Origin: Minisyncoccota bacterium
GTDB taxonomy: Bacteria > Patescibacteriota > Minisyncoccia > Phycocordibacterales > UBA9973
Length of the DNA stretch: 64,000 bases
Assembly: GCA_021734995.1 (NCBI GenBank)
Contig: JAIPHX010000002.1
Location: forward strand, 16,189-80,188
Direction of reading: 5' to 3'
In this document: piece by piece, positions 70 to 26,002 of the stretch
Position numbering within the stretch: position 1 is the first letter of the stretch
How the letters are laid out: every line of letters starts with the position of its first letter
The notes under the pieces: model-generated
The model's database searches: none
Told to the model about the DNA's origin: nothing
Seen by the model: only the letters and a program-made list of their open reading frames with translations
Program-made: the position numbers and the translations under genes

Positions 70-666
70 TTACTTATGTTTAAAAAAAGAAAAAACCGCA
101 GGAACAAAAGAAAGGAAAATAATCCCCAAAATAATTGGAAACAAATATTTATCTATATTTGGAATCCATTCCCCCAAAAAATATCCAAGTAAAGTGACTC
201 CCCCTCCCCACACAAGAGCTCCTATTATATTGTATGCACTAAAAGTTTTACGAGGCATATTGCCTACTCCTGCAAGAATGGGTGCAAAAGTGCGAACAAC
301 GGGAATAAATCTAGCTAAAATAATTGTCTTTTTACCATACTGTGCATAAAAATTTTCTGCTTTTTTTATATATTCTTTTTTAAACCAAAACGAATCTTCT
401 TTTTTAAAAATCTTTGGACCAATTTTGTTTCCAAAAGTATAGCCTACCTGATCCCCAATAAAAGCACCCAAAATTGTCAGCGCACAAACCCACCAAATAT
501 TAAAAAATCCTTGCGAAGCAAGTAACCCCACAGTAAAAAGCAAACTATCCCCAGGTAAAAAAAATCCAAAAAACAAACCTGACTCAGCAAATATAATCAG
601 GAACAGACCAATATATCCAGCCGTTTTGGCGAGTTCCATAAGATCAATATGTAATAAAGCTTCCAT
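70..666 (-). CDS. DedA/TVP38 family membrane protein
   Basis: Multi-TM 198-aa protein. Motifs (FAESGLFFGFFLPGDSLLF ... ILARFIPVVRTF) are typical of the DedA/SNARE-associated family. Confidence 0.7.
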   Translation of the reverse strand: MEALLHIDLMELAKTAGYIGLFLIIFAESGLFFGFFLPGDSLLFTVGLLASQGFFNIWWVCALTILGAFIGDQVGYTFGNKIGPKIFKKEDSFWFKKEYIKKAENFYAQYGKKTIILARFIPVVRTFAPILAGVGNMPRKTFSAYNIIGALVWGGGVTLLGYFLGEWIPNIDKYLFPIILGIIFLSFVPAVFSFFKHK

Positions 667-698
667 TTGTATATTATATCATCGCACAAAACACAGAC

Positions 699-1403
699 TT
701 ACTTTTTATAAAAAGGAGCAGATTGAATAGTCTTAATAATCAAATCTTCGTCATCTGTCAGTATTATAAGATCCATATCTTTTGGAGAAATAGTTTTTTC
801 TTCCCCTAGCATTTTTGCTTTAATAAAATCAAAAAGTGGACTCCAGAAATCTACCCCCACAAAAATCATAGGCACAGCAGGTATTTTCCCTGTCTGCATT
901 AAAGTAGTAACTTCAAAAGCTTCGTCTAAAGTACCAAATCCTCCTGGAAAAACAAGAAAAGCGTCAGCGGTAAAGGTCATTGCCACTTTACGAGTAAAAA
1001 AATAATAAAAAGGAATTTCTCTAGTAACAAAAGGATTAGTATGCTGTTCTGATGGGAGCTTAATGGTAAATCCAAAAGAATCTCCTCCTGCATTATGTGC
1101 TCCTTCGTTTGCTCCTTGCATAATACCAGGACCTCCTCCAGTCAATACTGCACACTGTGCTTCTTTTACTATACGGTCAGCAAGTCTTTTTGCTTTTTCA
1201 TAATATGGACTTGAAACATCTGTACGAGCAGAACCAAAAATAGTAACTGCCCTGTCTACATCTTTAATAATATCTAGACCTTGGCGAAATTCTTCTTCCA
1301 TTGCACAGATACGGATTTCATTTTCATCTCCTTCATGAGAATGAATACACCCATCTCTAATTTCTTGAACTGTTAATCTTGGTGATTGATTTGGATTTTG
1401 CAT
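699..1403 (-). CDS. LOG family protein (TIGR00730-like Rossmann fold, putative cytokinin riboside 5'-monophosphate phosphoribohydrolase homolog)
   Basis: Carries LTGGGPGIMQGANEGA and the PGGFGTLDE motif characteristic of LOG/lysine-decarboxylase-like proteins. Confidence 0.75.
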   Translation of the reverse strand: MQNPNQSPRLTVQEIRDGCIHSHEGDENEIRICAMEEEFRQGLDIIKDVDRAVTIFGSARTDVSSPYYEKAKRLADRIVKEAQCAVLTGGGPGIMQGANEGAHNAGGDSFGFTIKLPSEQHTNPFVTREIPFYYFFTRKVAMTFTADAFLVFPGGFGTLDEAFEVTTLMQTGKIPAVPMIFVGVDFWSPLFDFIKAKMLGEEKTISPKDMDLIILTDDEDLIIKTIQSAPFYKK

Positions 1404-1481
1404 AAAGAGATTATATCAAATCCAAAATTAAAATCTACCTACAATAAAATGAATATCTTTCACTGGTTTTACAAAATATAT

Positions 1482-2276
1482 TTACAAAATCATATCAGAA
1501 GAATTAATACTAAACTTTTTTGCAGTATCCCCTCCTTGAGTCACAAACTCTACCAGTCGCATATCATTTATCCCTGAACTACCTGTAATCAAAGCAGACA
1601 CTTGATCAGGCACATCTTTTAATTTTTCAAAGTAAGGAAAATTACCAAACTTTGTAGATATATTTTCTCCTTCTTGTAATTCATTTTTTAATAATGTGGT
1701 CTTACAATTACCAAAATTATCAACATACCACACCACAGAAGGCATATCTGGAAAATCTTTTATATTCATCGCTTCACTTTCTACCACAGTATTTTCTGTG
1801 CCTTTATTTTTCAACAAGTATTCTGCGATTCTCGGTAAAAATTCATAACTTCTAAATTGAGTATGCATAATGTAATTGCCCGTTTCTTTAGAGAGAATCT
1901 TTTCATTTACAAATCTTTCTACCACAGTAGGGATATCTAACACATTTACTTCTTGTATTAAATTTAATTTTTTTACTAAAGATAAAGTATATCCATCAAT
2001 AGAAGATACTACTAAAATATTTTTATACCAAAAATATCCAAAGGGTGTACCATTCGCCCATTTTTTTGCAGTTCCATTTCTAGGCGCAACATTTACCAAA
2101 ATTAAAGCAGGACTATCTTGGTATGCATCCAACACATCAAGGAGATTCCCAGAAGCTTCTATGTCGCTTTGAACTCCAACAAAAGAAATATTCCCCTCTA
2201 TTAAAGAAGAAACTCGAGCGATCTGTCTACCTTTTGCATTATCATCTCTACAATCATTTATTATGGTTATGTTCAT
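1482..2276 (-). CDS. SAM hydroxide adenosyltransferase-like (DUF62) family protein
   Basis: Has a C-terminal VDNFGN motif, a central NVAPRNGT motif (similar to iDPGVGT) and an N-terminal INDCRDDNAKG motif (similar to TDFG..PYVG). All resemble DUF62 proteins. Confidence 0.45.
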   Translation of the reverse strand: MNITIINDCRDDNAKGRQIARVSSLIEGNISFVGVQSDIEASGNLLDVLDAYQDSPALILVNVAPRNGTAKKWANGTPFGYFWYKNILVVSSIDGYTLSLVKKLNLIQEVNVLDIPTVVERFVNEKILSKETGNYIMHTQFRSYEFLPRIAEYLLKNKGTENTVVESEAMNIKDFPDMPSVVWYVDNFGNCKTTLLKNELQEGENISTKFGNFPYFEKLKDVPDQVSALITGSSGINDMRLVEFVTQGGDTAKKFSINSSDMIL

Positions 2277-5989: not shown

Positions 5990-6379
5990 ATGAACAAAAA
6001 AGTTTCAATAATTATCACCCTAAGTCTTATCATCGCTATTGGTATTATATTTATTAGTAGTGGTAACACAACAGACAATACTGCCTCTGTTCAAAATACA
6101 GAAATAAAAGATGGTGTCCAATATATAACTATTGACGCACAAGGTGGATACTCCCCCCAAAAAAGTAAAGCTCAAGCTGGCATCCCGACAAAATTAATTG
6201 TAAAAACAAACGGTACTTATGACTGTTCGTTATCTTTAGTTATAAGATCAATCAACTATCAAAAAATTCTTCCACCGACAGGAGAAGAGATAATTGATAT
6301 TGGTATTCCTACAGCAGGAGTTCCATTTAGAGGAGTATGCGGTATGGGAATGTATAATTTTGAAATAGAGTTTAGTTAA
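5990..6379 (+). CDS. Secreted cupredoxin-like (Cupredoxin_1-type) protein
   Basis: Signal/TM N-terminus and a C-terminal GVCGMGMYNFEIEF motif resembling the CGMxM cupredoxin-like domain proteins found next to copper ATPases. Confidence 0.5.
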   Translation: MNKKVSIIITLSLIIAIGIIFISSGNTTDNTASVQNTEIKDGVQYITIDAQGGYSPQKSKAQAGIPTKLIVKTNGTYDCSLSLVIRSINYQKILPPTGEEIIDIGIPTAGVPFRGVCGMGMYNFEIEFS

Positions 6380-6574
6380 TTCACTTTTTACTCCAACAAA
6401 AGAAACACTTCCTTCTGCACGGAAACCGACTCCAACTACTTCAAAGTGTGCTGATTTGCAGGTACATTTTGTATAAGTCCACGCATTTTTGCACTCCTTG
6501 AGTAAATTAATCCAAACAATAATCCTATTCTACATATTCTAGAAAACATACATTAGAAATGCTAAAATAAATAT

Positions 6575-7150
6575 ATGAAAAGAGTAATTATTGTACATCG
6601 ATGGGAGGGAGGATCGCATGATGACTGGTATCCGTGGTTGAAATCAGAATTTGAAAAACTTGGATATGAAGTACAGGTCCCAAATATGCCAGACACTGAA
6701 GTTCCTATTATTAAAAAATGGGTTGATACCCTTACCGAGATAGTCGGAACTCCAGATATAAACACCTATTTCATAGGACACTCAATTGGCTGTCAGGCAA
6801 TTCTTAGATATTTGGAAACTATTAATACTCCAGTCGGAGGTGCTATCTTTGTAGCAGGTTGGTTTAATCTTGAAAATATAGAAGATGAGGAAGCACAAGA
6901 AATCGCACGACCATGGATTGAAATACCAATCAATCTTGTTAAAGTAAAATCTATCCTACCAAAGGCAACACTTATCATTTCAGAAAATGATCCTTATGGC
7001 TGTCTAGAAGAGAACCAACAAAAATTTTCAAAAGTGACTACAAACGAAATAGTGATCTCTAATGCAGGACATTTTACTAGTGAAGATGGTTATATAGAAA
7101 TTCCAGAAGTAATAGATGAACTTGTAAGATTTATGGCTAACCTACCCTAA
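6575..7150 (+). CDS. YdeN/RBBP9-type alpha/beta serine hydrolase
   Basis: 191-aa protein with a GHSIGC nucleophile elbow and an overall profile matching the Ser_hydrolase family. Confidence 0.5.
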   Translation: MKRVIIVHRWEGGSHDDWYPWLKSEFEKLGYEVQVPNMPDTEVPIIKKWVDTLTEIVGTPDINTYFIGHSIGCQAILRYLETINTPVGGAIFVAGWFNLENIEDEEAQEIARPWIEIPINLVKVKSILPKATLIISENDPYGCLEENQQKFSKVTTNEIVISNAGHFTSEDGYIEIPEVIDELVRFMANLP

Positions 7151-9227: not shown

Positions 9228-9817
9228 TTGAAATTAAAGCACTATTTGGAATACTCTCATCATTCTTTGTTCTCATTGGAGGAATTCCATATCTAAAAGA
9301 TATTCATCAAGGAAAAGCACATCCACACGTGTTAAGTTGGCTTGGCTGGGCATTTATTACCGCACTTGGAGCAAGCGCAATGCTTGCCGAGGGAAGCACT
9401 TGGGCTGTAGCAATTTTGTTTGCAAACACTCTTTTGTGTTTGTTGATTGCTGGATACTCAATAGTTCGAAAAGTAGGTGTTTGGTCTACGGGTATATACG
9501 ATTTTATATTCTTCGGGTTTGGAATTATTGGTCTTGTTCTTTGGCAAGTTCTCAATATGCCAGTTATTGCACTTGTATGTGCAATCATGGCAGATCTTTC
9601 ATTTGGACTACCAACGATTATCAAAACTTATAAAGACCCTTCAACGGAGACTCCTTTTGTCTGGGCAACAGCAACAATATCAGGCTTGTTAAGCTTGTTT
9701 GCTGTTCAAAGCTTTGCCTTTCACGAAGTATCGTATCCTCTCTATCTTTTCATATATGACACTCTAGTATTACTACTTGTATTGAAAATAATTTACCGTC
9801 CAAAGAGCAATATCTAA
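9224..9817 (+). CDS. Hypothetical integral membrane protein
   Basis: Six predicted TM helices. Its start overlaps the upstream gene (ATGA). Confidence 0.4.
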   Translation: MIEIKALFGILSSFFVLIGGIPYLKDIHQGKAHPHVLSWLGWAFITALGASAMLAEGSTWAVAILFANTLLCLLIAGYSIVRKVGVWSTGIYDFIFFGFGIIGLVLWQVLNMPVIALVCAIMADLSFGLPTIIKTYKDPSTETPFVWATATISGLLSLFAVQSFAFHEVSYPLYLFIYDTLVLLLVLKIIYRPKSNI

Positions 9818-18041: not shown

Positions 18042-18437
18042 GGGGATGATAGGCATAGACAAGAGTCTTGTTTATCTGAATGCATGTCGAGAATGAACGT
18101 AATCTCGCTAAACTTCGTTCAAAACGTTAATTGCAAAATTGACTTCAAAAGTAAAGGCAATCACTTCTCCATACTTCGGTATGCAGGATTTTGCTTTTGC
18201 TCCAGCACGCGCTTAAGTGGGCTGGTGTCTTTCTCGTAGACTTCCGATATACGAAGAGAGGCATAATATTATCGGGATAGGAAAAGAAACTTCCCACTCT
18301 TCTTCCAAAACTTAGGGAATCGTTTGAAAAATATTTTGCTTACTTTATAATTTTTCAAACTAAACATAAGGTAAGACACACATGTAGAAATTCAAATATC
18401 AACCTTTTGCACGGGGATTCAATTTCCCCCATCTCCA
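18042..18437 (+). ncRNA. ssrA: tmRNA (ssrA)
   Basis: Lies immediately downstream of smpB. The 5' GGGGAUG pairs with the 3' CAUCUCC to form the acceptor stem. The T-arm is GGGGA-UUCAAUU-UCCCC, with discriminator A. A candidate internal tag ORF ends at TAA (18214-18216). Confidence 0.7.
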
Positions 18438-19962
18438 CATCAAGGGTATGACCAGCCTCAATTCGGTCAAATAGCTTATAAAGACAGGACTTTTCAGGGG
18501 TTCGATAACCCATTTCATGTACAAAGACAATTTTGTCATCAAACATGAAAGAGAAAAGCTCCTGTTTTTGCTTTACGGTCCCTTTTTCCCATATTTTATA
18601 AGGGCTTTTTATCATGCCCGTTATCTGATCATACGAAGTTCGATAAGGAATAACGTAGTCAATTTCTTTACCTAGTTTTTCCTCTATTTTCTCTAACTCA
18701 ATAGATTTTTCTTCAATTCTTTTCTGATAGCTTCTTTTCACTATCAGATTTTCTATTCCAATCGACTCATCTGCCAAACCGCCGATCTCCTCTTCAAGTT
18801 TACTTTTCTGTTTAATTAACAATTCCGATTGTTTACCAATTCCTTTTATTTCGTCATTCCATAAATCTTCAAACATCATCCCAACAATACCCACTAAGTC
18901 TGATTTAGGTTTATTATCTTTTACAAGTTTCTTAAATCCATCATCAATGTCCTTTTGCTTCACAGTCTTACTTCTCAATGCACACGATCGATACTGACAT
19001 GAATAATACGGGTGACGCTTACCAGTTTTACTTCTAGAATAATAAGCAGTCATCTTTCTGCCACATTCTGAACAGCAAACTAATCCTCTTAATGGAAACT
19101 CTTCTCGGATATCTTGCCTGATTACCGCATCTCTAGCTTCGCCATTAATTCTTTTCACATTTGCAAAATAAACCTCTTCAGAAATTACACCTTCGTGTTT
19201 GCCTTTCTGTCTTCTTACATCCCACTTCTCATATTCAATAAAACCAGCATAAAAAGGATCAAGAAGAAGTTTCTTTGTTGTCTCTAAGTATTTCTCAGCG
19301 TGACATTTTTTAGAAAAGAAACCTTTCTCCTGGAGAAATCTAGCAAGATCGATAATCCTTACAAACCGCTTATAGGCAAAACCTTCTAAGCCTTCCTTTA
19401 AGATTAATCCTGCACTATTTGGAAAACATGTGTTTCCATATTCAGTTCTACGCATCTCATAACCTTTAGGGGCATGGAAAGCCCAATAACCCCTCTCTAG
19501 ACGAGCCTTTTGCTTTTGAATAACTTGTCTCTTGTTCTGGTTCCTTTCAAGCTCTGCTCCTGCGGCAAGTATCACTTCTACATACTGACCTTCAGGACTT
19601 TCATCAAAGCTGAAATTCAAACACTCAGGCACAATCCCTCGTGTTCTAAATGCCGTTCTAAGTTTTAAGTGGAACTCGACATCTCGAGCAAAACGTTTAA
19701 GATTGTCAAAAACAACAACGAAATTATGATGAGGTTTTGAGTCTACGTATTCAAGAAGAGATCGCATTGCTGGTCGTGCCATAAAGTCTCCTCCACCTGT
19801 AAAGCTATCTTTAAAGACCTTTGTAGGCTCGCCATACCCCCTATTAACACAATAAGTGCGACATCTCTGTTCCTGAGACTCTAAACCACCACCTTCACGC
19901 ATTTGGCGCTCTGATGAGACACGGCAATATATGATTGGTATTCGTTTAATTTCTTCTTTCAT
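18355..19962 (-). CDS. Large serine recombinase (integrase)
   Basis: N-terminal resolvase catalytic domain (YCRVSSERQ), a recombinase domain and a Zn-ribbon (CSECGRKM...YYSCQ) with a coiled-coil C-terminal region. The last ~27 codons overlap the tmRNA 3' portion. Confidence 0.85.
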   Translation of the reverse strand: MKEEIKRIPIIYCRVSSERQMREGGGLESQEQRCRTYCVNRGYGEPTKVFKDSFTGGGDFMARPAMRSLLEYVDSKPHHNFVVVFDNLKRFARDVEFHLKLRTAFRTRGIVPECLNFSFDESPEGQYVEVILAAGAELERNQNKRQVIQKQKARLERGYWAFHAPKGYEMRRTEYGNTCFPNSAGLILKEGLEGFAYKRFVRIIDLARFLQEKGFFSKKCHAEKYLETTKKLLLDPFYAGFIEYEKWDVRRQKGKHEGVISEEVYFANVKRINGEARDAVIRQDIREEFPLRGLVCCSECGRKMTAYYSRSKTGKRHPYYSCQYRSCALRSKTVKQKDIDDGFKKLVKDNKPKSDLVGIVGMMFEDLWNDEIKGIGKQSELLIKQKSKLEEEIGGLADESIGIENLIVKRSYQKRIEEKSIELEKIEEKLGKEIDYVIPYRTSYDQITGMIKSPYKIWEKGTVKQKQELFSFMFDDKIVFVHEMGYRTPEKSCLYKLFDRIEAGHTLDVEMGEIESPCKRLIFEFLHVCLTLCLV

Positions 19963-20176: not shown

Positions 20177-21061
20177 TTATGGTTTTTCCATAACATCTGT
20201 CTCTACCGACACAAATTTTCCATCTTTTATTTGGAATGTAATGCTTCCAAATTCTCCTCCATTCTTAACAATTTCTCCCAAGACTTTGTAAGGGTTAGGA
20301 TTATTCTCAATATCCTTTTTAGATATATGACTTACAATTCCATTTTTAAATTTAATGGTTACGGCTTTATATTCACCGGACCGAATAATATCGAGAACAG
20401 AAAGCTCCTTGTCTTCAAGGTATGAGGGGATATTTTCTTTCGAAATCAAATCCGCCTTATCTTTAAGGAAACGATTTTTAATGATATTGAAATTTATTTT
20501 TATATAGTTAGAGTCGATATATCCAACCAACTCAGAAAAATCAATTTCATCTCTAGTACCCACATCTGCCCTACCGTCAGGAGCAACAATCATGAAAAAG
20601 TCTTTGTCTTTCTGAATGAATGATCTCAATAAATATGTTTCGAGAATAACTGCATTTGAATTTTTAAAAAATGACTCCTTTGTAGTCTTTATATTTTCAA
20701 GAGGGACACCAAAGCGTCTAAGTTCCATAGCAATTTGAAGCCAAAACAACTCTAAAAAGCTAAGCATTGTAGTTGCATTCTTTTCTCGTGTATCAAGTAG
20801 CCCAGCTTGTTTCCAATGACTTAAAACTCGGCGATTTATTTTCAACTCTGACGGTTTAAATTTCTTTTCTCGGACCTTATTCAGAACAGGCTTTTTCTCA
20901 CCTCCAATCATTCCTAAAACTAGGTAACTAAAACCCGATCTTATGATATTAAATTTAGGCAAATTTGATGTCGCTTTCATGTTACATAAATTGTAACACA
21001 TCTGTAACATAATAAAAATACCCAACCTGTTTGTAACTAAGGCAAATGGTACATCCTCCAA
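20177..21061 (-). CDS. MerR-like HTH regulator with unknown C-terminal domain
   Basis: SELKINRRVLSHWKQAGLLDTRE...LSFLELFWLQIAMELRRFGVPLENIK resembles the MerR N-terminal HTH and dimerisation helix. The C-terminal ~180 aa is unassigned. Confidence 0.45.
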   Translation of the reverse strand: MEDVPFALVTNRLGIFIMLQMCYNLCNMKATSNLPKFNIIRSGFSYLVLGMIGGEKKPVLNKVREKKFKPSELKINRRVLSHWKQAGLLDTREKNATTMLSFLELFWLQIAMELRRFGVPLENIKTTKESFFKNSNAVILETYLLRSFIQKDKDFFMIVAPDGRADVGTRDEIDFSELVGYIDSNYIKINFNIIKNRFLKDKADLISKENIPSYLEDKELSVLDIIRSGEYKAVTIKFKNGIVSHISKKDIENNPNPYKVLGEIVKNGGEFGSITFQIKDGKFVSVETDVMEKP

Positions 21062-21089
21062 CCTCCCACACTGTTTTTCACACTGTTTT

Positions 21090-21310
21090 TTGATATCTTT
21101 CGAGTTTCTTTCGATTATTTTTGTGCTTTGCTGTTTTTTGTTTTGTCGAGTAAATGTCGAGTTTTTTGCTTCGTTTCGATTTTCTTTCGATTATTTTATA
21201 TTAATTGACCCAGTTTTTACCGAGTATTTTTATTTAACTTTTCTGAAACTTTCGGTTTTCTTTCGGTTATTTTTTGCTTTTTGTCGATTATTTGTCGATT
21301 TTTTCAATTT
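21090..21310. repeat. Iteron-like array of degenerate direct repeats T(T/G)TCGA(T/G)T(A/T)TTTT (about 12 copies)
   Basis: Examples: TTTCGAGTTTC, TTTCGATTATTTTTG, TGTCGAGTAAA, TGTCGAGTTTTTTG, TTTCGATTTTC, TTTCGATTATTTTAT, TTTCGGTTTTC, TTTCGGTTATTTTTTG, TGTCGATTATTTGTCGATTTTTT. All lie in the intergenic or promoter region of the MerR-like gene. Confidence 0.6.
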
Positions 21311-21983
21311 AAGAGATTGCGATATCTATGTTTTTGATACCACTAAAGTCGAGAGGATTTTCTACTTTACTCAAAATAAACAGATTTACATTCCAAATAT
21401 AAGGATTAGCCACAGTAAAGATCGATGACTTTTGTCTGCCTGTAGTTGCAATCTCAATAGCATCAGAGTGCATCTTTATCTCTATAATCTTTGAAAGTGG
21501 TATGACTCGATTTTCCATAGTGCCCCTGAATACGAGCTTTTTGTTTGTAATTATCAAGTCTCCACTTTCTACCGATCTAAGCTCCTGATTGCTCTCAGAT
21601 TGCCCCTTATAGCCTCCCACATGCACACCTTTCATAACTCTGAAGCCAATCCCTAAACCTACTGAATTCCTAATAGATTTTGACTCCATTAAAACAGTGT
21701 TTTCTTTCAAAAAAGCGTACTCATCTTTTTCTAATAAAAGCGAAGTTGAGATAGGTTCGAGTTTCTTTTCTAACTTGATCTTCTCGACCAGATTTCGAGC
21801 CTCATCTTTCTGTTGCTGATCTACTAGCGCCTTGTTTTTAACACTACCTTTCTTCGATCCATACCAGAATAAAACGATACCTGCAATCAAACCGAATACA
21901 CCAAGAGCGGGATCGATGACCGAGGATATCAACCATATACAAACGGCAATAAGTGCCAATTTGGTCTTACTTAAATTTTCCAT
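21309..21983 (-). CDS. Membrane protein with bacterial PH (bPH_2-like) domain
   Basis: Two N-terminal TM helices. C-terminal LIITNKKLVFRGTMENRVIPLSKIIEIKM...IEIATTGRQKSSIF matches the bPH fold profile. Confidence 0.5.
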   Translation of the reverse strand: MENLSKTKLALIAVCIWLISSVIDPALGVFGLIAGIVLFWYGSKKGSVKNKALVDQQQKDEARNLVEKIKLEKKLEPISTSLLLEKDEYAFLKENTVLMESKSIRNSVGLGIGFRVMKGVHVGGYKGQSESNQELRSVESGDLIITNKKLVFRGTMENRVIPLSKIIEIKMHSDAIEIATTGRQKSSIFTVANPYIWNVNLFILSKVENPLDFSGIKNIDIAIS

Positions 21984-22002: not shown

Positions 22003-22140
22003 TAATAAAATACTTTTGGGCAGACAAAAAGCCCGCCGCCAAGCTGATGGTCCGAGGACCACCCATGCCCGTTTCCAGACATGACTCGCTACAAGCAACC
22101 CTGACGACGGGTTCTTTATCTTGTAGCGAGTTTTGCAACC
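22003..22140 (-). ncRNA. GC-rich structured leader / putative small RNA upstream of the bPH gene
   Basis: The ACTCGCTACAA motif occurs three times, twice direct and once inverted, so two mutually exclusive 11-12-bp stems are possible. There are additional GC hairpins (GGTCC..GGACC, GGGC..GCCC). GC content is far above the local background. Confidence 0.3.
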
Positions 22141-22210
22141 ATATCCTTTTGTGTTTACACAAAAGGGGTTAGGTCGACTGATATTCAGTTGTAATTCTAT
22201 TTTAACATAA

Positions 22211-22564
22211 TTACGACCAAATTCTATCGGTAAGTTCTTGCGTTAATATACCTAAACTTGTACCAGTAGTATCAACAACATTTATAACAATCATGTCAAA
22301 AACAAATTTACCAGTATCATTAGTAATCAATTCAACATAGAAAACGAGATCATAAACTTCTGGCAGATTACGAGAGTAGGTTTTCCCGTCCAGTTTAGTT
22401 TTTATTTGTATAAACTTTATGTTTCTTCCTTTAATCGCAATTAAATCATTACCACTATCTTTTATTGGTGGCGCGGCTTGAATACCAAACTCAAGAAGCT
22501 GTAACTGTGAGAATATTTCTCCTATTGCTCCCACGTATGTTGTTTTTGGTAGAGGATTTCCCAT
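22211..22564 (-). CDS. Small hypothetical protein, possible PD-(D/E)xK-like fold
   Basis: 117-aa protein. GNDLIAIKGRNIKFIQIKT resembles a D...(E/Q)xK core. It is the last gene of the defense operon. Confidence 0.25.
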   Translation of the reverse strand: MGNPLPKTTYVGAIGEIFSQLQLLEFGIQAAPPIKDSGNDLIAIKGRNIKFIQIKTKLDGKTYSRNLPEVYDLVFYVELITNDTGKFVFDMIVINVVDTTGTSLGILTQELTDRIWS

Positions 22565-22582: not shown

Positions 22583-24328
22583 TTACTTATCGTAGTCAAC
22601 TTCAATATCAAGACCGAGCAATTTCTCTTCTGGTGAGCCATCCTTTAGGGCAAGAACTTCTTTACTTTCAATATATTTGATCTCGTCTGCTGAAAGATAT
22701 TCTTGGTTCTTAATTTGATCCAAAAAGTCTTGGTTGATTGTGAGAATATACTGAAGATTATTTTCCTCACAAATCTCAGAAACAAGTTTTAGGAATACTG
22801 CGACTTGTCTAGCATCTGTGTCACTAAGAATACGGCTGTCATGCGCCAAGAACTTTATGCCATGATTTGTCCCACCCATAACAAAAATAGTTAGATCGAA
22901 GCAAAGCATCTTTACACCAGCTATTCCATCCGAACTGTCATATTTGATGCGAGCATCCAGGTCAAATTGAGTTTGGTTATCTTTTGTATTTTCTTTAACG
23001 GTAATACCTGCGGTGGAAGATGGATAAAATGTTTCAGAAAGTTTAGTAAAGAAAGCATTATTTTTTTCATTCAAAGTGTCAACACTCAGCTTATAATCCA
23101 GCGCTTCTTTTTCTGCTTCTGCTCTTTCGATTTTAATTTCACTCTTTCTTTTCTTATTGTGATCAATGAGATTTTTGTACCTCTGTAATGACTCTAGTTC
23201 TTCTTGGGCTTGAGTTTTTTGTTGCACCAAAACAGAATAATCTTCCAGGGCACCGCCACTTCCTAACATACGAAGATAATCATCAAGCTCTTTATTTTTT
23301 AAAGAAAGACTGCCTTTTATCTTTTTTATTTGAGGTAATAATTCCGCTTTCTGTTTATTGAGTTGAGTAACTCGTTTGGTAGTTATTTGATTATGGAAAG
23401 ATAGAGTGTCTTTCAGGTTTTTCTTTAAAAGTTCAGGAAATTCAACAGATACTTTCTTGTACGCTAAAAGTACCTGATTTTTTTCAAGATCAAGTGGTAC
23501 AGCATTTTCAATTGTCTTATTTATATTTTGTAATCTCTTTTCAAGAATGAGTAATTCATTGATCAATGATTTTCGCTGATAGGATACCTGATCAGCTTCA
23601 CTTTGAATTTGTCTATTATTTTCTGCAATTTCATAATTCTTCAATCCGTTTTCAGCATCTTTAATCTTCACTCTGAGCTCTCTGAGTGCAATATCGACAT
23701 CGCTGTATTTAAGGAGAATACTCCTTACCTCATTGTCTTTATCAAGGGCATCTAAAACCACCTTTATCTTGTCAGCTTCTTCTTTAAGAACTTTCTTTTT
23801 AACTAAGTAATCAATATCAAAACCCAATAAATAGAAATTATTTATCAATTTCTGAAAAGGTTTTTCTCTTAAAAATACAGTATCCCAACTTACATAGCTT
23901 TGTTTCTTGGCACGCAAAAACCTATTCATTATTGTGCGGTAGCTGATATAAGGGTACTTACCTAGGTCAATATTAAAAAGCATCTCCTCCATTCTTTTAT
24001 TAAAAAGATCGAGTGATAATTCTTCTTCATTTAAATAAACTCTGTTTGTTTCCTCAGCAGGTCTTCGAACGGTGTAAGTCTTTCCGTCGTGTTCAAAATC
24101 AAGATAAAAGACCCAACCTTTTAGGCTATTTTTAAAAGCGTTATTATCTGATCCAAGACAAAAATCTATTATTGAGAGAAGAAGACTTTTACCTACTCCA
24201 TTAAAAGTTTTAGTGGTTGATTTGTCTTTGGGGTCTTTTTTTCCACCAAAAATAATATTCAAACTATCCGTTTTGAAGATGACGGTCTTAAATGTATCTT
24301 TGTTTGAATAAACTTTTAATAATTGCAT
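22583..24328 (-). CDS. SMC-like ABC ATPase with central coiled coil (LmuB/ABC-3C ATPase-like)
   Basis: N-terminal Walker A (FNGVGKSLLLSIIDF), a long coiled-coil middle region and a C-terminal Walker B/D-loop (MLCFD..FLAHDSRILSD). Confidence 0.6.
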   Translation of the reverse strand: MQLLKVYSNKDTFKTVIFKTDSLNIIFGGKKDPKDKSTTKTFNGVGKSLLLSIIDFCLGSDNNAFKNSLKGWVFYLDFEHDGKTYTVRRPAEETNRVYLNEEELSLDLFNKRMEEMLFNIDLGKYPYISYRTIMNRFLRAKKQSYVSWDTVFLREKPFQKLINNFYLLGFDIDYLVKKKVLKEEADKIKVVLDALDKDNEVRSILLKYSDVDIALRELRVKIKDAENGLKNYEIAENNRQIQSEADQVSYQRKSLINELLILEKRLQNINKTIENAVPLDLEKNQVLLAYKKVSVEFPELLKKNLKDTLSFHNQITTKRVTQLNKQKAELLPQIKKIKGSLSLKNKELDDYLRMLGSGGALEDYSVLVQQKTQAQEELESLQRYKNLIDHNKKRKSEIKIERAEAEKEALDYKLSVDTLNEKNNAFFTKLSETFYPSSTAGITVKENTKDNQTQFDLDARIKYDSSDGIAGVKMLCFDLTIFVMGGTNHGIKFLAHDSRILSDTDARQVAVFLKLVSEICEENNLQYILTINQDFLDQIKNQEYLSADEIKYIESKEVLALKDGSPEEKLLGLDIEVDYDK

Positions 24329-24567
24329 AAATGTAAATTGAAATTCTTATCGACCTCTACTGCACCAAAAGAATAGAGTAAGTCTAAGGCTAAAACAAAA
24401 TTTTGATGATTGTGGTAACTTGGACAGCGTTTAGTATTGTTGACAGCACTAAACTTTACCCAAAGCCCTTCAATTGAAACTGGTTTATCCAGTAATTCAA
24501 TAAGAACCCCAGAAAGTCCGAATATTGAGTCGTATAAACTAACATGTTTTGATGGAAAAATTATCAT
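24316..24567 (-). CDS. Small middle component (83 aa) of the ABC three-component system (LmuC-like)
   Basis: Small helical protein whose coding sequence overlaps both neighbouring genes. Its position is typical of an ABC-3C/Lamassu middle component. Confidence 0.4.
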   Translation of the reverse strand: MIIFPSKHVSLYDSIFGLSGVLIELLDKPVSIEGLWVKFSAVNNTKRCPSYHNHQNFVLALDLLYSFGAVEVDKNFNLHLCNY

Positions 24568-25499
24568 TTTGGTTCTTTGTATATATCACAACTTTCAAAG
24601 TAAAGCGCCATGAGGCTCAGTGCCGCTTTTCTTATCGCTGGCTCCATCATGCTATGAGATGAACTGCAGGTAAGAATGTCAAAAAATATATTGTCGGAAC
24701 ACTCCTCGTCTGCAGGCTCTCCATATTTTTTGACTGCTGAATTATATAGATGAGTAAATTTCTCTTGCAGTTCTTGTTTCAGCTCTTTATCGTCTATTTC
24801 TGAGAAATATTTTTCTACCTCTGATATGTTTTCATAATGCTTCTTCAGCATTTCGGTTGAGGATGCACTTAGGTGGTTAAATGCAATTTTTTCTTCGAAA
24901 TCAGGTGCGATAAGCTTGGCGCTTACATCATCAGGAATTTCCAATGATTTAAGATGTTCAGCAACAATATTCAGAGACTCGTAACTTAGTATTGTCTCGT
25001 CTGAATTTAAATGCAAAATTTCATCTTGTTTTTCTGGAGATAACTCTCTAAACATTCTTTGCAGATCATCAGCGTTGAATAGGTGAAATTTGATCTCAGA
25101 ATACTTTTTAGTTTTTTGAAGTTTGCTTAAAGCGCTACGTAGATCAGGATAAGCACCCTGAAACTTATCGTTAAAAGCAAAATAGAATTCCTTTATCGGA
25201 TCAATATCATTCCAAAACTTGTAAAGACCACCGAAGTCAGTGATCATTTTCTCTACCGCTTTTTGAGCGTTCTCTTTGGGATTTTCTGGGGAATAAACTT
25301 GATAAAAAATCCCTTCACCTTCTCTGTAGCCATCATTCTTCTTATCTCCCTTTGAGCCTTGTGGTTTAACCTTTTTAAAATTAGTGAAAGCAGAAGTAGC
25401 AACCTTCCAGAATAAATCCTGAAATGCTTGGGCATTGGCTTCGGTGATTAAGCCTCTCAAAATTTTTCCTGATATACGTTGATATTCAATCTGGTTCAT
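24564..25499 (-). CDS. Putative effector component (LmuA-like) of a Lamassu/ABC-3C-type system
   Basis: 311-aa protein. The N-terminal GDKKNDGYREGEGIFYQVYSPE region resembles a restriction-endonuclease-like core. It is the first gene of the operon and overlaps the next gene. Confidence 0.4.
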   Translation of the reverse strand: MNQIEYQRISGKILRGLITEANAQAFQDLFWKVATSAFTNFKKVKPQGSKGDKKNDGYREGEGIFYQVYSPENPKENAQKAVEKMITDFGGLYKFWNDIDPIKEFYFAFNDKFQGAYPDLRSALSKLQKTKKYSEIKFHLFNADDLQRMFRELSPEKQDEILHLNSDETILSYESLNIVAEHLKSLEIPDDVSAKLIAPDFEEKIAFNHLSASSTEMLKKHYENISEVEKYFSEIDDKELKQELQEKFTHLYNSAVKKYGEPADEECSDNIFFDILTCSSSHSMMEPAIRKAALSLMALYFESCDIYKEPK

Positions 25500-25834
25500 G
25501 CTCTTACTATTTTATCAGAAAGTAACATACAAAGAAATGCTTTGAACAGTTGATTGAGTACTTTTTAAATCAACGAACTAGTAAGAGTAACTTGTTCGTA
25601 TTCTCTATATGAAATCCAAGGTCGCTATACAACCCAGCCCAGTCAAAAGTTCGAAATCATACCTCCAGACGAGTAAAGACTCAATACTCAACCTTATATT
25701 CAATACTAGGATTGTGCCTATTAATTAAAAATTAATTATTGTAAAACAACATTTAAATTAGCGTTCTGTGGATCATTAAAATATTGATACCACTGATACA
25801 TAAAGCTTTTTATAGAGTTCAGTAGATTTCGGCT

Positions 25835-25846
25835 CATCTCCACATC
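25835..25846 (+). repeat. Third, degenerate copy of the tmRNA 3'-end core (CATCTCCACATC)
   Basis: Matches 18429-18440 exactly. The flanking sequence GATTTCGGCT resembles the tmRNA T-arm 3' strand AATTTCCCCC. Confidence 0.5.
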
Positions 25847-25852
25847 GCTCTG

Positions 25853-25880
25853 AAAAACTGCCTTAATGGCAGTTTTTTGG
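25853..25880. terminator. Bidirectional rho-independent terminator
   Basis: AAAAACTGCC-TTAAT-GGCAGTTTTTT. Confidence 0.6.
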
Positions 25881-25975
25881 TGCGACTGTGGTGCACAAGT
25901 GGGAAATTGAATAGCCGGAGCGCGACGGCGCGAGGCGGGGTCGCGGGTTTTGCCAGTAGGCAAAAACCTGTGACT
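25881..25975 (-). other. GC-rich structured element B (homolog of element A), adjacent to the distal att repeat
   Basis: On the minus strand: GGTTTTTGCC-TACT-GGCAAAACC, CGCGA-CCCCGCC-TCGCG, then GCGCCGTCGCGCTCCGGCT (shared with A), then ATTCAATTTCCC (identical to the tmRNA T-loop region), ending ...GCACCA before the terminator. Confidence 0.35.
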
Positions 25976-26002
25976 CATATTTCCCCCATCTCCACAAACA
26001 AC

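Follow-up and report, generated by a model that had tools for sequence, protein, structure and literature searches.

The stretch of DNA analysed here (64,000 nucleotides, below called the window) carries an island of ~7.5 kb that is integrated at the tmRNA gene and bounded on both sides by an 18-nt sequence repeated from the 3' end of this gene (Table 1). The island encodes a serine recombinase, an ABC-3C system, two ORFs to which we could give no assignment, and a 224-aa protein whose gene is preceded by the RNA considered below. The ORF of the serine recombinase (18355-19962, minus strand) overlaps the 3' part of the tmRNA gene, which therefore appears to owe its present 3' end to the island. 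The ABC-3C conflict system (22583-25499, minus strand) is complete and comprises a 311-aa CTD10 protein, an 83-aa MC6 protein and a 581-aa DUF2326 ATPase (PADLOC PDC-M68); the next ORF after it (117 aa, 22211-22564) stops 6 nt before the -10 box that we propose for the RNA. Around the right att repeat, from just inside it to beyond it, there is a GC-rich patch (about 25825-25990, minus strand, GC up to 0.50). Rfam reports nothing at the gathering threshold in this patch, which holds a stretch (ATGTGGAGATG.., about 25846-25825) that partly matches the tmRNA 3' end in reverse complement and may be the scar left by an earlier island in tandem.

AlphaFold models the 224-aa protein (pLDDT 79.5) as a hydrophobic helical hairpin at the N-terminus, followed by a long helix and a PH-like beta-sandwich with a C-terminal helix. 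The best PDB matches of this model in Foldseek are PH-like domains, all of them weak (E about 1e-3), and the single Pfam match of the protein, to CheF-arch, is weak as well. The label "bPH-like membrane protein" therefore seems to us reasonable, if weakly supported by these models. The literature we searched yielded nothing relevant on PH-domain defence proteins or on RNA regulators of Patescibacteria. Four copies of a T-rich unit of ~37 nt (GTTTTTTG..TTTCGA..TTTCGATTATTTT, at 21085-21305), the first three of them 76 nt apart, lie between the PH-like gene and an unassigned 294-aa ORF (20177-21061); they look iteron-like or operator-like. In relatives, a gene for a protein of 210-220 aa follows after a long gap at the position that matches the 294-aa ORF.

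Table 1. Features of the island and of the RNA in front of the PH-like gene (window coordinates; segments a to e as used in the text)
Feature	Position	Strand	Evidence
tmRNA gene, integration site of the island	18042-18440	plus	Rfam, 116.9 bits
18-nt end repeat TTTCCCCCATCTCCACA	18422-18439 and 25979-25996		repeat of the tmRNA 3' end, at both island ends
Gene for 224-aa PH-like membrane protein	21309..21983	minus	ORF, AlphaFold, Foldseek
e: third copy AAAACUCGCUACAA, 2 nt short of the start codon	21986..21999	minus	repeat match, c:e energies
Small tail hairpin d:d', GGCGGGC-UUUUU-GUCUGCC	22019..22037	minus	MFE fold of the full leader
d: G-rich segment and U-tract GGCGGCGGGCUUUUUGUC, outside the Rfam model	22023..22040	minus	complementarity to b, covariation
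LOOT RNA, four hairpins P1-P4	22046..22175	minus	cmscan RF03000
P4 hairpin GGUGGUC-CUCG-GACCAUC	22046..22063	minus	model alignment, fold
P3 hairpin, invariant GAAA tetraloop at 22075-22072	22064..22083	minus	model alignment, covariation
c: basal P2 3' strand CUUGUAGCGAGU (middle copy), pairs with a or e	22084..22095	minus	covariation
b: internal loop of P2 with its apical 5' strand and loop GAUAAAGAACCCGUCGUC, alternative partner d	22103..22120	minus	covariation
a: basal P2 5' strand ACUCGCUACAAG (first copy of the preliminary description)	22120..22131	minus	model alignment, own pairing
P1, internal loop CCUAAC / UAUGG, resembles the 11-nt GAAA-tetraloop receptor	22137..22175	minus	sequence comparison
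Predicted extended -10 element TG-T-TAAAAT	22199..22207	minus	comparison across LOOT lineages

In front of the PH-like gene, a preliminary description of this DNA had pointed out an 11-mer, a second copy of it near the ATG and its reverse complement in between. All three are present at the spacing described: the direct copies of ACTCGCTACAA lie at 22131-22121 and 21996-21986 of the minus strand, and the reverse complement CTTGTAGCGAGT at 22095-22084, 24 nt past the first copy, which extends to 12 nt. The start-proximal copy ends 2 nt ahead of the ATG (21983); it was included in the wording of that description, but the interval given there (22003-22140) ends short of it. The full direct repeat is 14 nt long (AAAACTCGCTACAA, at 22134-22121 and 21999-21986). 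Allowing one mismatch, we found no further copies of the 11-mer in the 64 kb window; 0.49 matches are expected by chance, and three were reached in 0 of 100 dinucleotide shuffles. Two smaller GC hairpins were also found as described, GGTCC-TC-GGACC at 22059-22048 (within 22063-22046) and GGGC-TTTTTGTCT-GCCC at 22034-22018, both on the minus strand. Two ORFs that cross the region (43 and 63 aa) were rejected as coding sequences, as both run through compensated stems; neither ARAGORN nor Rfam returned a tRNA-like att remnant in the region.

The region, which had been left nameless, is a full-length LOOT RNA (RF03000). A search of the whole window with cmscan gave a match at 22175-22046 of the minus strand with 79.8 bits (E=1.3e-15), well above the gathering score of 46.4 and spanning model positions 1-121, i.e. 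the full length of the model; the only other Rfam match in the region was a chance snoRNA hit far under the threshold of its family. The region is a genuine structured RNA and a new copy of a known family. Alignment to the model identifies the first and middle copies of the repeat as the two strands of the basal LOOT P2 stem and GGTCC-TC-GGACC as the core of P4, and places GGGC..GCCC past the 3' end of the model. The LOOT RNA motif goes back to Weinberg et al. 2017 (PMC5737381), and the Rfam 14 paper (PMC7779021) counts it with the "metagenomic-based RNAs"; its type in Rfam is "Gene; sRNA" (trans-acting). The literature we searched, with the main text of the 2017 study, names the motif but assigns no function, organism or gene context to it.

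In an alignment of 15 LOOT sequences (loci other than the window are designated here by L numbers) the CCUAA and AUGG sequences of P1 and the GAAA loop of P3 are invariant; P1 is 92-98% and P3 88% paired, both with compensatory changes, which in P3 affect 7 of the 8 pairs. The 5' strand of P2, on the other hand, is hypervariable, with a mean identity of 35% across 11 lineages, and still the a:c stem is 100% paired in each of them, as opposed to 49% for non-cognate combinations (P2 pairing was tabulated from each sequence's own fold and is partly circular, and the non-cognate pairing serves as its control). The internal loop of P1 reads CCUAAC/UAUGG in the window and CCUAAA/CAUGG in a second subfamily, so that the G-U position of the receptor is replaced; the consensus of the 11-nt tetraloop receptor is CCUAAG/UAUGG (PMC2615604). 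This resemblance suggests that the GAAA loop of P3 may dock into the receptor-like loop of P1.

A putative promoter can be recognized upstream of the RNA. In most of the 15 LOOT lineages a -10-like hexamer, often with a preceding TG, occurs 6-7 nt 5' of a conserved ACAA, and in most lineages this pair is located about 10-20 nt upstream of LOOT. For the window this comparison would place the transcript start at about 22192 (ACAACUGAAUAUCAGUC). A sigma-70 promoter scan of the region did not call the proposed promoter, because it has no -35 box.

Of the 13 homologues of the 224-aa protein, 11 were followed to their loci, and these were scanned with Rfam. LOOT was found above threshold (72-100 bits) at the locus of every close homologue examined except L070, whose protein is 57% identical; two of the loci (L071 and L072) hold only part of the leader. 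At these loci LOOT is always on the same strand as the gene, with 46-66 nt between the end of P4 and the first start codon of the operon. The first gene behind it encodes a PH-like protein, a SHOCT protein followed by a PH-like one (L009-L012), or a 217-aa protein followed by a PH-like one (L007 and L008). The genes upstream vary at every locus and include restriction-modification, helicase, ABC-3C and other genes, and therefore LOOT and the membrane-protein gene travel together. No LOOT was found near homologues of 30-57% identity from other lineages, among them soil, archaeal, Dehalococcoidia and viral relatives. Upstream of the PH-like homologue at L070 (about 995-1270) we observed two tRNA-like halves, GCCGTTGTAGCTCAGCTGGTAGAGCAC and GGGTTCGATCCCCGACAATGGC, ~230 nt apart, which could represent an intron-containing tRNA; the region received no tRNA call from Rfam.

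Independently of the protein, viral contigs were scanned with five DNA patterns derived from LOOT. The matches listed for the first pattern were mostly due to chance, and those of the last two entirely so; the scan as a whole revealed at least three distinct true LOOT loci (L079, L162=L198 and L211=L214), which nhmmer and Rfam confirmed. At L079 LOOT is located 45 nt before the gene of a trypsin-like protease (6089-6988; Trypsin_2, E=2.5e-12), and at L162 it is located 84 nt before the gene of a 138-aa protein (9243-9659, minus strand). Both products have a hydrophobic N-terminal segment, as read from the sequence only, and the occurrence of LOOT in front of these two genes therefore hints that the genes it would regulate share a membrane localisation rather than one fold. 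The 14 loci of leader type have 45-84 nt between P4 and the start codon of a gene on the same strand. Since most loci were collected via the protein, the rule that LOOT implies a downstream membrane gene rests on three independent loci. The third, L211, is a phage contig, in which LOOT stands alone, with its own canonical terminator ~50 nt downstream and no gene behind it. The same contig contains a second, truncated LOOT-like 5' half (446-495), consisting of P1 and a P2 5' strand (AACCAUCCAAG) that hardly differs from its counterpart in the full copy, and next to it lies a reverse-transcriptase-like ORF with a YxDD motif (565-1668, minus strand).

Comparison of the lineages revealed that the conserved unit does not end with P4. 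A G-rich and then U-rich stretch follows P4 immediately in all lineages, and in the window 17 of the 18 positions of this segment (d) can pair with b, G-U pairs counted. Among 12 sequences the b:d helix is 92.6% paired, with 11 of the 18 pairs changed on both sides; none of 500 shuffles matched this value, and controls in which the segment was slid were 43-54% paired. With the three protein-independent loci included (15 sequences) the pairing stays at 92.6% and 12 of the 18 pairs are compensatory, on a par with P1 and P3 in this alignment. RNAalifold also yields the b:d helix de novo. Many of the pairs are G-U, which would be A-C mismatches on the other strand; this assigns the structure to the RNA transcribed in the direction of the gene. 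The apical 5' strand of P2, which is part of b, covaries with its local partner b' as well (ACCC/GGGU, GACUC/GAGUC, CUGAAC/GUUCAG and GCUC/GAGC in different lineages). This covariation is three-way, linking both apical strands with the tail, and indicates that two partners of the 5' strand are under selection.

The 5' strand of b:d directly adjoins that of a:c, and the full 18-bp b:d helix cannot nest with P2; we judge the two to be sterically incompatible even as a pseudoknot. Which of them prevails in the predicted folds varies with the length of the transcript. For LOOT with a tail of 26 nt, b:d is the MFE fold in six of eight lineages (-70.2 kcal/mol in the window), and for the full leader most lineages regain the LOOT fold together with a small tail hairpin (-77.4 kcal/mol in the window). 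This hairpin, d:d', overlaps GGGC..GCCC and rivals b for segment d, and analogous tail hairpins occur in L003, L006, L007, L024, L044 and L211; what had been taken for an extra hairpin of the leader is the small competing hairpin of the tail. In all lineages the GC core of b:d is followed by 4-7 U within 9 nt, while its loop is far larger than that of usual terminators. A simple terminator scan found only a weak local hairpin, AGCUUGGCGGCGGGCU, followed by UUUUGUCUGC.

The start-proximal copy of the repeat (e) provides a second alternative helix. Segment e is present in the window group (the window, L001, L005, L017 and L071), in L003 and in L162, and in these three lineages it ends 1-5 nt before the start codon. 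The sequence shared by a and e and complementary to c differs between the lineages: it is ACUCGCUACAA in the window; in L003 UCCCGCUAGA occurs in P2 and again 4 nt before the ATG; and in L162, a locus found by pattern and with a different downstream gene, AAAACCGCUACAGU occurs in P2 and again 5 nt before the ATG. In each of the three the match of e is significant by shuffling (p<0.0005), and the k-mer that the 5' strand of P2 shares with the last 30 nt ahead of the ATG was equalled in 0 of 2000 shuffles. The cognate e:c duplexes have energies of -17.7, -17.2 and -23.0 kcal/mol, compared with -7.6 to -16.0 kcal/mol for e with the c of other lineages. In L162 the e:c duplex comprises 12 bp, one more than a:c, and it is therefore complementarity to c, and not mere identity to a, that is conserved. 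With single helices enforced, the full leader of the window has energies of -77.4 (a:c), -75.4 (c:e) and -71.0 kcal/mol (b:d), that of L003 -75.9, -75.4 and -67.9, and that of L162 -86.0, -90.0 and -85.9, respectively; the two pairings of c are near iso-energetic, 0.5-4 kcal/mol apart. The predicted c:e pairing would span positions -13 to -3.

The proposal that the middle copy pairs with either of the direct copies is thus borne out by matched changes in three lineages, and the conservation of the stems in homologues speaks for alternative pairing. It is a subfamily in which this pairing (c:e) holds, and the family-wide helix b:d had been missed. A copy of e is absent from 8 of the 11 LOOT lineages examined, and e is therefore an add-on of a subfamily and not the core mechanism. 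The spacers of the lineages without e carry other hairpins, one of which, in L009, overlaps a Shine-Dalgarno-like GAGGA. Neither the alternative pairing of c and e nor the b:d helix appears in the literature we searched, the main text of the 2017 LOOT study included.

With moderate confidence, we favour the reading that LOOT at this locus acts as a refolding, multi-state 5' leader of the attenuator or riboswitch type that controls the PH-like gene; the word riboswitch is applied to it by analogy. The leader would be transcribed, together with the gene behind it, from its own promoter inside the tmRNA-integrated island of this Candidatus Pacebacteria genome, and could exist in three states. In State 1, with the gene ON, all four hairpins of the Rfam fold would be formed, P2 by a:c and the apical hairpin together; the GAAA loop of P3, docked in the CCUAA/UAUGG loop of P1, would probably lock the fold, and the start region would be free. 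In State 2, the emerging segment d would nucleate on the loop of P2 (GUCGUC with GGCGGC), oust the apical stem and zip with b into the 18-bp helix that ends in the U-tract; as b:d cannot nest with a:c, P2 would open. This helix is the predicted MFE fold at that transcript length and may serve as a long-range intrinsic terminator or pause. In State 3, proposed for the window subfamily only and with the gene OFF, the freed segment c would pair with e and bury the 11 nt before the ATG, and in this way occlude translation initiation. The tail hairpin d:d' would draw d off and favour the return to State 1. Since the LOOT fold leaves the start free, a stabiliser of this fold, be it a ligand, a protein or an ion condition, would turn the gene ON. 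Family membership, gene linkage, the covariation of a:c, b:b', b:d and c:e and the closeness of the energies are results of the comparison itself; co-transcription with the gene, termination, the occlusion of initiation and the direction of the switch are inferred from them.

Several points speak against this scheme. Rfam types the family as a trans-acting sRNA, e is missing from 8 of 11 lineages, and several bPH homologues of 41-57% identity lack a LOOT. A terminator stem that closes a three-way junction of ~65 nt would be unusual, and b:d would have to invade a pre-formed and very stable P2 in time. The U-tract also has a simple explanation as the pairing partner of the A-rich strand. Moreover, segment d is retained by the stand-alone LOOT of L211, and b:d may therefore belong to the RNA's own function rather than to an expression platform.

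The first alternative to be considered is that LOOT is a separate sRNA gene that ends at d and the U-tract, that the mRNA of the membrane protein starts from its own promoter in the A/T-rich spacer, and that c blocks e in trans, so that a toxic membrane protein repressed by LOOT would form a same-strand analogue of a type I toxin-antitoxin pair. We regard this as unlikely, although several observations agree with it: the Rfam type of the family, the stand-alone LOOT in the phage contig, a U-rich tail that follows a GC-rich pairing, the position of e next to the start codon and its complementarity to c lineage by lineage, a product that is a small membrane protein in a defence-rich island, and -10-like A/T hexamers in the spacer. 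In the mature LOOT fold, however, c is buried in a 12-bp stem, and because of this a trans-acting LOOT would need the same unfolding as a leader acting in cis. No conserved second promoter is evident, and the spacing between LOOT and the start codon is tight (45-84 nt) and the strand always the same. Finally, e occurs in 3 of 11 lineages, yet the gene linkage is found in 10 of 11.

A structural or catalytic RNA with no switching, in which b:d forms a pseudoknot within the native fold, the proximity of the gene reflects promoter sharing and e is incidental, is in our view improbable. Arguments for it are the retention of d even in the stand-alone phage copy, the covariation of loop-to-tail pairs, and the steric plausibility of a partial b:d (~10 bp) as an H-type pseudoknot with a:c intact. 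Against it, the covariation reaches into the A-rich and U-rich halves of the two strands (alignment columns 64-72 with 159-167), whose pairs cannot coexist with a:c because the linkers would have zero length. The covariation of the apical 3' strand with the same 5' strand likewise argues for selection on two partners, and e, which changes in step with both a and c and keeps a fixed distance from the ATG, can hardly be regarded as incidental. Origin of the repeats as a mere DNA-level by-product (a target-site duplication or recombination scar without RNA function), suggested by direct copies that flank a GC-rich segment of ~135 bp in a mobile island encoding a serine recombinase, is extremely improbable and already refuted by covariation, given that one repeat lies within the conserved stem of a curated RNA family, that the repeat sequence varies by lineage with all three copies changing together, that e:c in L162 goes one bp beyond the identity of a and e, that G-U pairs make the structures strand-specific, and that the lineages are not recent copies (the protein of L003 shares 51% identity with that of the window). 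A target-site duplication in particular is ruled out on the same ground.

Returning to the multi-state leader, we can place LOOT in Patescibacteria (genome assemblies of Paceibacteria and Saccharibacteria) and in one phage contig, and tie it to a putative promoter and a downstream membrane-protein gene on mobile, defence-rich islands. To our knowledge, almost nothing is known of the regulatory RNA biology of Patescibacteria, a large uncultivated group. The conserved unit is longer than the Rfam model and contains two sets of mutually exclusive covarying helices. An orphan metagenomic motif thereby gains a testable hypothesis, namely that of an RNA switch over a possibly toxic membrane effector. 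A more far-reaching reading, which we offer as speculation and think rather unlikely to hold as a whole, is that LOOT is no sRNA but serves as the sensor domain for a so far unrecognised class of cis-acting switches in Patescibacteria and their phages that gate membrane-active effectors in mobile defence islands. If this were true, the class would have two gates, the long-range terminator helix and the occlusion of the start by a lineage-specific "address" copied from P2, and the stand-alone LOOT of a phage could compete for the trigger or factor and act as a counter-defence decoy.

Several known systems resemble parts of this arrangement. In type III toxin-antitoxin loci (ToxIN-like) a promoter is followed by a structured antitoxin RNA, a terminator and the toxin gene, and the present locus shares with them the order of promoter, structured RNA, terminator-like element and effector gene as well as the defence context. 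It differs in having one RNA unit and a PH-like membrane protein downstream in place of an endoribonuclease. We rejected its assignment as a type III toxin-antitoxin locus, as there is a single LOOT unit, the 20 largest families of direct repeats listed for the island region include no tandem array, and the downstream protein is PH-like and not an RNase. In toxin mRNAs of the hok/sok type, long-range fold-back pairing keeps the mRNA of a small membrane toxin inert. Here, too, the product is a small membrane protein of a mobile or defence element, several folds are predicted, and initiation could be locked by a distant upstream segment; unlike in hok/sok, the toxicity of the PH-like product is putative, and there is no sequence or structural homology between the two.

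Compared with the family as described by RF03000, the RNA of the window has the same four hairpins, the CCUAA/AUGG loop of P1, the GAAA loop of P3 and the hypervariable but compensated P2. Unlike the Rfam model, which stops at P4, the conserved unit runs on for 30-40 nt to d and the U-tract, and in a subfamily it extends to e at the start codon. In contrast to the sRNA typing of the family, it has a putative promoter of its own and is found at a constrained distance before a membrane-protein gene.

The closest parallels are found among attenuators and riboswitches. Attenuators of the trp type alternate between 1:2, 2:3 and 3:4 pairings, and riboswitches use terminator/antiterminator or start-sequestering platforms; the c-di-GMP-I riboswitch uses a tetraloop-receptor contact, as LOOT may do. 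LOOT resembles these systems in its folded, sensor-like domain in a 5' leader with a 3' platform that varies between lineages, in the covariation-backed chains of mutually exclusive helices that it shares with attenuators (b':b, b:d and d:d'; a:c and c:e), and in a U-tract after one helix and an initiation region that is predicted to be occludable. It departs from them in that the switching strand lies inside the sensor, in apical P2, and not in its closing helix, and from usual terminators in that the stem of the putative terminator closes a three-way junction.
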